Source: Planctomycetota bacterium (GTDB lineage: Bacteria > Planctomycetota > UBA1135 > UBA2386). Taken from it: a stretch of 64,000 bases of DNA. The notes under the pieces were generated by a model. The model had not been told where the DNA came from. It saw only the letters and a list, made by a program, of their open reading frames with translations, and made no database searches. Shown here piece by piece: positions 42,125 through 45,811 of this stretch. Each line of letters opens with the position of its first letter. Positions within the stretch are counted from its first letter, which is position 1. Position numbers and translations under genes: made by a program. Location of the stretch: the NCBI GenBank assembly GCA_965228735.1, contig OZ245838.1, positions 1,632,001-1,696,000 on the forward strand, read 5' to 3'.

Positions 42125-42317
42125 GGGGCGCGGGCACGCCGAGGATCCGGTCCGCGTGCCGGCGCGTGATCGCAACGATGCCGGCAAGCGCGAGCACGGG
42201 AGCTGCCCTCGCAAGCGGCCCCCCGTTCGAGCGGCGGCGGTCAGGTCACGCCCCCGGCCGGGGAAGTACAGGTATCATCGCGCCACCAATGGCACGGATC
42301 CGAAACGAGGAACGGCG

Positions 42318-42581
42318 ATGACCGTCCGCGAGCGGATTGCCTGGCTCTTCGGGTTCATCGGTGCGTTCATGCTCGCGTTCTTCGTGGGTTGGTTGTGCTA
42401 TGTCCCCATCGGAGAGCCGAACGAAGACCGTCTGCTCCCAATGTGGTTCATGTTCGTGCCCTGGTTTGCGATATGGCCGCTCGCAGAGCTCTTCGATCGA
42501 CGCCGGTGGCGTTCGCGGCGCGCGAATCGACGCCGAGCCGTCCCGACCCCGCCACCCTTGCCGCCCCAGAATCCGCGTTAG
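42318..42581 (+). CDS. Small two-TM membrane protein
   Basis: GAGG RBS, ATG 42318, two hydrophobic helices, basic tail. Confidence 0.6.
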   Translation: MTVRERIAWLFGFIGAFMLAFFVGWLCYVPIGEPNEDRLLPMWFMFVPWFAIWPLAELFDRRRWRSRRANRRRAVPTPPPLPPQNPR

Positions 42582-42642
42582 CGCGGGCGGGCGATGACCG
42601 GAGGGTTGCGACCGCGTCTCGGGCCGAGTCTCATCACGCCGA

Positions 42643-43425
42643 GTGACGTGTGACTTCGGGGTCTGGTCGACGGGGAAGGTCCTCAGCAACGAGGAAGCCG
42701 GCGAGCTGTATGGGCAGCTCTGCGATGGGATCACCGACGGCGTGCTGCCGACTCCGGCGATCGAAGCGTTCTATGGCGAGTTGACGGCGATGCATCCCGA
42801 CCTCGACGACATCCCGGATGACAAGGTCGACGACCTGGAGCAGAGCCCTTGGAGTTGCGGTCTCGGCCGATCTTCGGGCCACGTCCTCATGAACTGCCGT
42901 TGGTCGCGTGCGGAATACTGCTACGGGCTGATTCACGAGCTGGCCTGCAAGCACGGCCTCACCTTCTTCGACCCTCAGTCTGGGGTGGTCCACGATCCGG
43001 ATCTGGCGAAGCCCTCGACCCGGCGGCAGTGCGAAGGACTCCCGTGGAACGGTGACGGCAACGTGATCCGCCGGATCGCGACCGCGGGCTCGGACATATC
43101 TCGACCGATGGTCGTGGACTTCCAACTCGCCTTGCCGGACCGCGGCAGCGCGTTCGCCGCGATGCTCGAGGCCCGCAACCTCGGCTATACCTGCGAAGTG
43201 GACCAGGACGACGACAGCGAGACGTGGACCTGCACGTGCTCGCGGAGCATGACGCTCGACTACAACACGCTGCTCACGACCCAGGCCGAACTGGACCTCG
43301 TCGCCGAGAAACACGGCGGGAAAAGCGACGGCTGGGGCACGTTCGGCAACGCCCCGGCCGAGCCAGCGCCACCGCCACGCCAAGCGTGGTGGACGTTCTG
43401 GTGGTCGTGGTTCCTGCCGAAGTAG
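42643..43425 (+). CDS. Two-domain protein with C-terminal RraB-like (ribonuclease E inhibitor) domain
   Basis: GSDISRPMVVDF...LVAEKHGGKSDGWGT matches the RraB pattern; acidic N-domain with SPWS and HGLTFFDPQ. Confidence 0.72.
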   Translation: MTCDFGVWSTGKVLSNEEAGELYGQLCDGITDGVLPTPAIEAFYGELTAMHPDLDDIPDDKVDDLEQSPWSCGLGRSSGHVLMNCRWSRAEYCYGLIHELACKHGLTFFDPQSGVVHDPDLAKPSTRRQCEGLPWNGDGNVIRRIATAGSDISRPMVVDFQLALPDRGSAFAAMLEARNLGYTCEVDQDDDSETWTCTCSRSMTLDYNTLLTTQAELDLVAEKHGGKSDGWGTFGNAPAEPAPPPRQAWWTFWWSWFLPK

Positions 43426-43480
43426 GCCACGCGAGCCATCGGCGACGCGGCACCTGCCCCCGCTTCGACCGGCAGGAAGG

Positions 43481-43525
43481 TGGGGTGGCTAACGGGATTC
43501 GAAACCGCGACCTCCAGAACCACAA
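43481..43525 (-). repeat. Displaced 3' half of tRNA-His (att direct repeat)
   Basis: 44/45 identity to 44303-44347, from the anticodon loop to CCA. Confidence 0.95.
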
Positions 43526-43629
43526 ACCTCGTCGAGCGGCCTAGGTCTCTACCCGAATCTGCCCCTTCGTGGACAGTGTCCGCGGCGACGGAATGTTCCG
43601 ACCATCCTATTCCGCGCGCGCGATCGGGC

Positions 43630-43950
43630 CTACCGCTTGGTCGACTCCGGCCGCCACTTGTTGCCATACGGGTAGTAGCCGTCGGAGACTTGCACAGGAA
43701 ATGTGACGATGTCCCACGCCAACGTGAACGGCACGGCCGCCAGGAACGCCAGGGGCTTCAAGATGGCTGAGGAGATCGAGTCCCCTCGGGCTGCATCATG
43801 ACGGAAGCCAAGGTCTGTTCTTTCGTCCGGGAACAGGTCAGCATTCGCCCAGATACCAAGCTGAATCGACGCACAGGACTGAGTGGAGCAGAGAGCGATG
43901 AAAAGCAAGGCAGCCCGGCTGCCCCTCCGACCCGTCACTCTCGACCTCAT
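43630..43950 (-). CDS. Small lipoprotein, YceK/YidQ-like
   Basis: Signal peptide with SC-AS; VPFTLAWDIVTFPVQ resembles the family's PF...D...P motif; TATCCT 7 nt before ATG. Confidence 0.6.
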   Translation of the reverse strand: MRSRVTGRRGSRAALLFIALCSTQSCASIQLGIWANADLFPDERTDLGFRHDAARGDSISSAILKPLAFLAAVPFTLAWDIVTFPVQVSDGYYPYGNKWRPESTKR

Positions 43951-44302
43951 TCTGGTCAGGATACCCGTCTCACCGCGACTGTGGAGATCGCCGATGGAGG
44001 GCACTTCTTCCGACTGCGACAGGGCCCTGCCGAGACACCTGAGCGGTAGAGCCAGCGACGGCGATCGGGATGCTTGCACGCCCACTCCAGCGCAGTGATC
44101 GACTCGTGCAGCGACCAGCGCCGGGTTGTCGTGCCCGATGATGCAACCGCGTTCCTTGGCGCCATGCGCGGTTCGCGCATCGTCTTGGTCACCTCGGGTG
44201 CCTCCGTGCGGTTTCGTGGACAGTGTCCGCGAGATTCGCGTGTCCGAACCGCACGGTCCGAGGACCGGTACGCCGCATGTTGCGACGTTCAGCGAAGTTG
44301 AA

Positions 44303-44380
44303 TGGGGTGGCTAACGGGATTCGAACCCGCGACCTCCAGAACCACAATCTGGCGCTCTAACCGACTGAGCTATAGCCACC
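44303..44380 (-). tRNA. tRNA-His (GTG), including encoded G-1 and CCA
   Basis: Cloverleaf: GTGGCTA/TAGCCAC acceptor, CCAGA-TTGTGGT-TCTGG anticodon arm, GGTTCGAATCC, C discriminator. Confidence 0.97.
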
Positions 44381-44680: not shown

Positions 44681-45811
44681 TCAGAGCACCTGCACGACGA
44701 CCGGCGCGCCGAGCACGAGGTCCGTGCTGGTGGCCGGCAGCGTGAGGCCCTGGAACGTGACCGGCAGGTTCATCGGCGCCGCCGCCGGCAGCGTGATCGA
44801 GGCGGAGAGGTCCCCCATCGCATCCCCGAAACCGATGCGTAGAACGACGTAGTTGGCCGGATCGATCCAGGCTTCGCCGAGCGGGGTCGGCTGCGGCGCG
44901 CGCAGGCCGAGCCCGGCGATCAATGCGGCCGGCCCGCTCGGCTCGCCGTGCACGGTCGCCGTGATCGTGCCGCCCGGCGGGGCGCTGTTCGCCGTCGTGC
45001 CAGGGAAGGGCTCGAGGGTGCCGGGGGTCGCGCTGGGTGTGATCGACACCGAGGCATCGCGATACAGCGTTGCAGTCGAGCCGAGAAACACGGCGGCGGA
45101 CTGGGTGTTGTTCGGCCCGATGCCACCCGTCACCGTGCTCCGGGTGATCTGAACCACGCCGTCGTAGATGTAGAGTCCGAACCACGGCGGCGCGTAGGAA
45201 CAGATGATCCCCGGGCCACCGGCCGCCCCGACGACGGTCGAGTCGGTGATGGCGAGGCGCCCCCCGTTCATCCAGACGGACTCGCCCGACAGGCAATGCG
45301 ATCCGAGCGACGCGCCTCGATTGCCGCGCACGGTGCACGAGTTGAGCGCGACGTTCGCACCGTAGATCATCAGCGCCGGGTTGACCTGGAGCAATGAGAA
45401 CGGTGTCCCGGCTCCGAGCACGCAGCCCCGCAGGCTCACTGTCACCGACGGACTGACCAGCACGTGCCCGGCCTCGACGTTCTCGACGATGCTGTCGTGG
45501 TCACACCGGAGTTCGAGCACGACGAGGTCGCGGAGCGACGCGACACCCGCCTGACCCAGCGGCCGCAGATGGAGCCGATCGATGCGGGTCGTCCCGGGGC
45601 CGCCCCCGATGAAGTGCAACTGCTTGTTGACGTTCTGAGCCGGGTAGACCCCGCCGCGGATCAGGAGCGTGTCGTCGTGGCTCGCAGCTGCGATCGCGGC
45701 GCCGAGGTCGGTGAAGTTGCCCCCACCGTTCGGGTCGACGATCCAAGTGGTCTGCGCGTTCAGCGCGGCCACGAACCCGAAACCAGCCACCATCGCCAGA
45801 CCCTGCTTCAT
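44681..45811 (-). CDS. Secreted protein with parallel beta-helix-like N-domain and C-terminal beta domain
   Basis: Signal peptide LNA-Q; WIVD..GG.NFTDL.AAI.AA...DTLLIRGG.Y beta-helix cap; Gly-rich repeats. Confidence 0.8.
   Translation of the reverse strand: MKQGLAMVAGFGFVAALNAQTTWIVDPNGGGNFTDLGAAIAAASHDDTLLIRGGVYPAQNVNKQLHFIGGGPGTTRIDRLHLRPLGQAGVASLRDLVVLELRCDHDSIVENVEAGHVLVSPSVTVSLRGCVLGAGTPFSLLQVNPALMIYGANVALNSCTVRGNRGASLGSHCLSGESVWMNGGRLAITDSTVVGAAGGPGIICSYAPPWFGLYIYDGVVQITRSTVTGGIGPNNTQSAAVFLGSTATLYRDASVSITPSATPGTLEPFPGTTANSAPPGGTITATVHGEPSGPAALIAGLGLRAPQPTPLGEAWIDPANYVVLRIGFGDAMGDLSASITLPAAAPMNLPVTFQGLTLPATSTDLVLGAPVVVQVL

Follow-up and report, generated by a model that had tools for sequence, protein, structure and literature searches.

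The tRNA-His locus and its displaced 3' half

The window (the whole stretch of DNA analysed here, 64,000 nucleotides of a Planctomycetota genome) contains an intact tRNA-His(GTG) gene, which is the sole tRNA-His gene among the 46 tRNAs recognized in this genome with Rfam RF00005 (72.4 bits); a second His call made by ARAGORN has no counterpart in that list. Behind this gene lies a displaced copy of its 3' half. The two copies form a 45-nt direct repeat (98% identity, one mismatch) and enclose 777 bp, and the whole stretch behind tRNA-His comprises 822 bp (Table 1). Identity between the copies begins at the first base of the 7-nt anticodon loop, and the single mismatch is a change of G53 to T in the displaced half, i.e. 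in the T-stem base that pairs with C61. The duplication, its border at the anticodon loop and the mismatch affecting a T-stem pair had been described in a first-pass annotation of the window, and all of these coordinates were confirmed. Its reading of the repeats as the att cores of an element whose tyrosine integrase recombines in the anticodon loop was likewise upheld.

The far end, including the letters of the att core with the G53T change, is identical in a metagenome contig (L105) and in record 13 of run X5, two sources that are perhaps not mutually independent; even so, an assembly error at this end is unlikely. A search of up to 276 kb downstream for further decayed att copies, allowing 14 mismatches over the 45 nt or requiring an exact 13-mer, found none.

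Table 1. Features of the tRNA-His unit (positions within the window)
Position	Strand	Feature	Basis
43481..43525	-	Displaced 3' half of tRNA-His, far att core; G53 to T at 43503	Repeat comparison
43566..43584	.	19-mer at the far end, separated from the core by 40 bp; likely arm-type site	Motif at -51
43630..43950	-	Cargo gene, predicted 106-aa lipoprotein (Cys26), weakly DUF1375-like	Homologues, Atlas
43956..44192	-	78-codon ORF, likely orphaned start of a deleted integrase gene	Position: GGAGG and GTG at the clade start offset
44193..44302	-	Putative att arm region of clade type on the tRNA side: hairpins, arm dyad, ribosome-binding site	Profile, 16.9 / 8.9-9.9 bits; fold
44213..44231	.	tRNA-side copy of the 19-mer, dyad, likely arm-type site	STGTCCA motif at +79
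44303..44379	-	tRNA-His(GTG) with the tRNA-side att core (44303-44347)	ARAGORN, Rfam RF00005

Paired 19-nt repeats at the inner ends

An exact 19-nt repeat is located just inside the two cores. As the annotation had claimed, it is present exactly twice, and in the complete genome (7.19 Mb) the same two matches are the only ones obtained with 0, 1 or 2 mismatches (five matches at 3 mismatches). This rules out a dispersed repeat, a possibility that the annotation had itself raised. The longest exact repeat found in simulated 777-bp sequences (first-order Markov, n = 5000) was 15 nt, and 106 of 4796 real 777-bp windows of this genome (2.2%) contain an exact repeat of at least 19 nt. It is highly improbable that the 19-mers are unconnected with recombination, having arisen by chance or serving as paired operators for a repressor on either side of the cargo gene. 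Operators are typically dyads and the proportion of real windows with a comparable repeat is not nil, but none of the 5000 simulations exceeded 15 nt and, moreover, the position, dyad form and motif of the 19-mers agree with the ends of the integrase clade described below.

It is likely, as the annotation had proposed, that the 19-mers are arm-type sites, and their binding by an integrase would follow from the established role of such sites (PMC2951348). Both the His unit and the tRNA-Gln island of this genome have the STGTCCA motif at +79, counted from the tRNA end, whereas the arm motif of the far end is found at -51 in the former and at -143 in the latter.

Paired repeats of this kind are common in the genome: a repeat of 9-21 nt is common to both inner ends in 10 of 14 other inter-att segments, and the paired end repeats are identical over 19 nt in the Gly island and over 21 nt in the Met island. 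Since they mark most islands here, any internal deletion would leave them in place, and for this reason they do not, taken alone, point to mobilisation in trans. A further exact direct repeat of 17 nt (window positions 43303-43319 and 45080-45096) has both copies in coding DNA and is probably a product of chance.

The tRNA-side end and its probable integrase clade

Twenty-four tyrosine-recombinase matches were found in the genome, together with duplicated tRNA ends for Ala, Gly, Leu, His, Met, Pro, Gln, SeC and tmRNA, and tandem arrays are common. In the tRNA-Met island the C-terminal part of an integrase is present three times with a spacing of about 503 bp (G000:C1:4706903-4708488), which reflects either tandem duplication or an assembly artefact.

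The 110 bp on the tRNA side of the His unit resemble the ends of one tyrosine-integrase clade. Relatives of the integrase of the tRNA-Gln island occur in 49 of 339 genomes, and a set of 23 tRNA-side ends of the clade was compiled from 30 listed loci of relatives plus loci of the same genome. Of these ends, 18 have a perfect dyad (arms of at least 6 bp) at a distance of 64-84 nt from the tRNA; in the His end the dyad occupies +71 to +89. On the profile built from the 23 ends the His end scores 16.9 bits, a value that drops to 8.9 bits upon removal of one training row (found with the His end as the query) and to 9.9 bits when all rows from the same genome are removed as well. Held-out clade ends score in the same range, with 12.7 bits (Gln) and 6.5 bits (Pro), and the best values among the His flanks of 75 relatives are 2.3-3.2 bits. 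Without the biased rows the E-value of the His end is 0.003-0.006, which is modest. The His end also shows a 75% match to the end of a tRNA-Pro island in genome G081, and its arm region folds with z = -3.4. The His far end could not be aligned usefully with any of 13 far ends of the clade (lowest p value from shuffling 0.015, uncorrected). Among viral contigs, four matches to the tRNA end were obtained, none of them with a clade end, and no relative of the Gln integrase was found.

In end architecture and in the 45-bp length of the core, the His unit corresponds to the integrase-bearing islands at tRNA-Gln, tRNA-Pro(GGG) and tRNA-Leu(TAG) of this genome and its relatives, and it shares the position of the arm motif with the tRNA-Gln island. 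These islands differ from it in size (8-45 kb versus 0.8 kb), in the start of the far arm (about -145 versus -59), in the tRNA genes used and in their displaced copies, which have no mismatch, whereas the His copy has one. Nothing relevant was found in the parts of the literature on Planctomycetes tRNA-island integrases that were covered, which is thin ground for calling the clade undescribed. A flank of tRNA-Phe (G000:C1:3943441-3943510) scores 11.7-14.1 bits on the clade profile; with no integrase match adjoining it and no displaced copy found, it is possibly another remnant.

Genes between the cores

The 106-aa ORF is a real gene. Its homologues, found in 10 of 90 genomes of the family, have in common the lipobox region (SC-A/T) and a C-terminal motif. 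A close relative keeps the frame intact, with, as raw counts, 7 changes at 80 synonymous sites and 9 changes at 238 non-synonymous sites. It belongs to no family in Pfam or NCBIfam, and the first match in Atlas (0.90), in which DUF1375 is present on 47% of members, is a weak lead. None of the 13 homologous loci examined has a tRNA or an integrase within 1.5 kb. An isolated 3' fragment of the gene (84% DNA identity) was noticed in genome G002 (locus L069, 1874-1958), with no tRNA in the 8 kb examined.

Upstream of this gene lies a 78-codon ORF preceded by a GGAGG site (44201-44205). Its GTG start is at +110, and clade integrases start at 104-132 (median 111, n = 19). The encoded peptide gave no protein-level match, including to the integrase N-terminal profile; the position of the start suggests that the ORF is likely the stub of a lost integrase gene. 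No integrase was detected between the cores with Pfam, with tblastn using the 24 recombinase ORFs of the genome or with the N-terminal profile, and searches of the inside ORFs against Pfam and NCBIfam revealed no relaxase or other transfer gene. The annotation was thus right about the lipoprotein gene and the missing integrase, and it had overlooked the 78-codon ORF.

Signs of decay and the locus in a close relative

The far arm of the His unit begins at -59. The other long-core islands of the genome (Ala, Gly, Leu, Pro and Gln) have theirs from -122 to -163 and seven tRNA-Pro units of relatives from -134 to -162; the His arm is about 90 bp nearer to the core than in clade members. The displaced copies at six integrase-bearing islands have no mismatch in 45 nt (a third Gly row, out of register, was left out). 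The G53-C61 pair is kept in the tRNA-His of all 76 relatives' loci (80 loci less L069, L071, L131 and L179). These two bases are among the most conserved in tRNAs (PMC10424219), and in a screen of a yeast tRNA no substitution was tolerated at this pair, which there also contributes to the promoter (PMC4117946). With crossover in the anticodon loop, precise excision would join the mutated half to the tRNA and so leave the only tRNA-His gene with a broken G53-C61 pair. A fitness cost of the G53U product in this bacterium may be inferred.

A relative about 95% identical to the window was recovered in runs X6 and X7, which come from two studies. It has the tRNA, the near arm (with one change) and the lipoprotein gene, with 3 and 69 additional letters directly following the orphan start, where 87 letters stand in place of window positions 44145-44162, and it leaves the window sequence at 43610, i.e. 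20 bp past the lipoprotein stop codon. One contig of X6 (41 kb) rejoins the window at 42198 after 3623 other letters. In the common part 28 of 535 letters differ, in the backbone 22 of 699, and this similar divergence fits long vertical descent. The annotation had conceded that relatives might carry a large island of which the unit is a deletion scar, and this is borne out in part, the X6/X7 form being longer and a different version of the locus. The DNA of the window outside the far att copy (42199-43480) is variable and is absent at that place in the X6 contig; it contains a gene for an RraB-domain protein of 260 aa (42643-43425) and a small membrane-like ORF.

In X7 the His core is a repeat unit of 49 bp with a depth of 17.6, against 5.4-8.8 for its neighbours. 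A second contig of X7 (2454 bp) starts at the core and has an end related to, yet distinct from, that of the window, possibly a sibling element. The repeated core and the second end indicate either a tandem element or a second strain. These data bear on the idea that the unit is a composite, in which the tRNA-side end with the lipoprotein gene and the far end would derive from separate events and would never have belonged to one island. The fact that the X6/X7 relative has in common with the window the tRNA-side half alone, with its break so close behind the lipoprotein gene, the elevated depth of the repeated core in X7 and the frequency of tandem arrays in the genome would all suit such an origin. 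Against it, the two 19-mers are identical, as are the ends of single elements (Gly and Met), and X7 may contain two strains. We consider a composite, formed for example by recombination between two related tandem elements, unlikely.

Searches for sibling elements, empty sites and excision products

The annotation had suggested comparing the tRNA-His locus in relatives, with the same ends around other cargo in mind. None of 76 such loci (stretches of 9 bp to 19 kb) shows these ends around other cargo, a duplicated tRNA half or the ends of the His unit at all, although strain-level variants could be missed in these collections, which consist of one genome per species or of broken contigs. Short self-matches of 12-20 nt in six of the 76 loci were attributed to chance; the self-match in L174 has an integrase at a distance of 7.5 kb. 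A duplicate suggested by tblastx in L057 was dropped, as it lies in coding DNA. The integrase directly behind tRNA-His in another relative (G014, locus L070, 590-2526) was rejected as a match, since it points toward the tRNA and belongs to another group; upstream of it is a helix-turn-helix-like ORF (labelled by eye), and the contig stops 2 kb further on.

A search of 338 genomes of the order yielded no convincing copy of the tRNA-side end; 10 of them contain only matches of 21-38 nt with E-values near 0.001-0.007. A scan of the genome collection for the His end followed by the dyad gave no matches, and a second scan with the GCTGA motif of the clade gave four, none of which scored on the clade profile. 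Of 42 metagenome matches to an 18-mer, 41 were unrelated, and the only related result of the collection scans was the same locus again. A pattern combining the arm and the ribosome site matched 51 times in 339 genomes (the reversed control also produced many matches), and none of the 30 listed loci was beside a tRNA or an integrase; the further matches include that of the window itself and L131. The joint expected of a circle or an empty site was absent from seven runs; six of these are contig sets, and the sole run of raw reads is off the locus. Runs X10 and X21 cover the tRNA only and so carry no information on excision, and runs X11-X14, with small word shares, were left out.

These results weigh on the proposal of the annotation that the retention of both cores and both arm sites around one gene indicates a non-autonomous cassette mobilised in trans, i.e. 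a working unit excised and re-inserted by a related integrase. Several observations speak in its favour: both cores and two identical arm-like sites are kept, the STGTCCA motif is common to the tRNA-Gln island (whose integrase ORF is intact), the cargo frame is intact in the relative, a related end occurs at the His core in X7, and relatives contain integrase-less tRNA-Pro units with conserved ends and differing cargo. Nevertheless, the genome has no third copy of the 19-mer with up to 2 mismatches, be it near an integrase gene (where the annotation had advised looking for one) or elsewhere. Neither the 76 His loci nor the 338 genomes of the order yielded the duplicated half or a convincing tRNA-side end, and nearly all of the metagenome 18-mer matches are unrelated. 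In addition, the stems flanking the loop differ between the Gln and His cores, the far arm is short by about 90 bp, and G53T would penalize excision. With paired repeats marking most islands and the far arm mis-spaced, the retention of cores and arms does not of itself point to mobilisation in trans; no sibling cassette or matching integrase was found, and the relative has a longer, different locus. A working cassette of this type is thus improbable.

The His unit as a probable stranded island remnant

The most probable explanation, to which we assign a probability of roughly 65%, is that the His unit is a deletion remnant, of the CIME type, of a larger island of a tyrosine integrase and is likely immobile. 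What is directly observed is both cores, both repeats, a tRNA-side end of the clade type, one intact cargo gene and no integrase. Descent by deletion is suggested by the clade-type end, the orphan start and the longer form in the relative; the parent itself was not found, no autonomous island with these ends at tRNA-His having been recovered, and its existence is inferred. An island of the clade, such as those at tRNA-Gln, tRNA-Pro(GGG) and tRNA-Leu(TAG) of the same genome, would have crossed over in the anticodon loop of tRNA-His and restored the gene. Deletions would then have removed the integrase from just after its start, other cargo and about 90 bp of the far arm. The displaced half would have drifted to G53T, after which precise excision would damage the T-stem of the only tRNA-His. 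The unit would since have been passed on vertically as part of the chromosome, and new islands could still enter in tandem at its tRNA-side site, which is intact. To end as a worn, stuck leftover of this sort is nothing unusual for such elements.

Several points stand against a remnant. A far arm this short might be the usual state in a subgroup that targets tRNA-His, and the two 19-mers are still identical. The clade profile also gives 11.7 bits to the tRNA-Phe flank, for which no integrase is listed, and the supposed integrase stub has no protein-level match. Moreover, a related end is present at the His core in X7, and a matching integrase may be in circulation.

CIMEs are defined as elements that have lost the genes for integration and transfer and have kept attL and attR (PMC5704250). 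PMC7563491 describes CIMEs as very common and lists, for Streptococcus salivarius, microCIMEs of 130-220 bp with no gene and classical CIMEs of 1.2-13 kb. Like the elements described there, the His unit has attL and attR in a tRNA 3' end, cargo and no integrase; unlike them, it stands alone and not in tandem, its 822 bp fall between the two size classes, and its far att arm looks shortened. In two structural features, the att ends and the lack of an integrase or transfer gene, the unit is thus CIME-like. The unit also resembles subsite A of Islander (PMC4383910) in its intact tRNA and displaced 3' fragment with identity from the anticodon loop, with the difference that Islander requires an integrase gene. 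As in the KplE1 module described in PMC2951348, where the integrase is transcribed away from the tRNA and its promoter overlaps the arm sites of attL, so are the clade and His ends arranged, whereas the arm sites here are candidates, mostly in the form of one dyad, and the integrase is gone. By its gene content, the unit would not qualify as an IME or a mobile genomic island, which have their own integrase.

Given how common CIMEs are said to be in PMC7563491, the remnant itself is of little weight. It does provide a neat, compact case from a lineage that has received little study, and may illustrate a route of island fixation, in which a mutated displaced half makes precise excision costly when the tRNA gene is present in a single copy.

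Integrase-less units at other tRNA genes

A more promising lead comes from tRNA-Pro(GGG), where several genera of this family have units that lack an integrase and whose ends are conserved: L251 (G061, 5.2 kb), L256 (G077, 2.2 kb), L257 (G078, 1.5 kb) and L260 (G030, 5.6 kb). Their left (about 180 bp) and right (160 bp) ends are 70-85% alike across genera and their cargo differs, with an AbiEi/AbiEii toxin-antitoxin pair in L256; the right end was also found in L253 and L259. The integrase-bearing loci L227 and L247 have the same arm motif as these units. The tRNA-Pro(GGG) units have normal far-arm spacing and no similarity to the His unit, and as candidates for a non-autonomous family they are the stronger of the two. 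They illustrate how such a family presents itself in these genomes, a pattern that the His unit lacks. That the latter might nonetheless belong, with its single gene and less than 1 kb, to an undescribed set of tRNA cassettes in this bacterial family that have no integrase and borrow one of the clade, with the tRNA-Pro(GGG) units as the active branch and the His copy locked in by mutation, strikes us as quite unlikely. If true, the locking-in of the His copy would amount to a simple addiction mechanism without a toxin.

A 2.8-kb unit in a tRNA-Met tandem array of the same genome (G000:C1:4807049-4809828) has both arm repeats and no tyrosine-recombinase match. It contains a lipoprotein-like ORF and a transposase-like ORF (labelled by eye), and it is likely a CIME beside related integrases.
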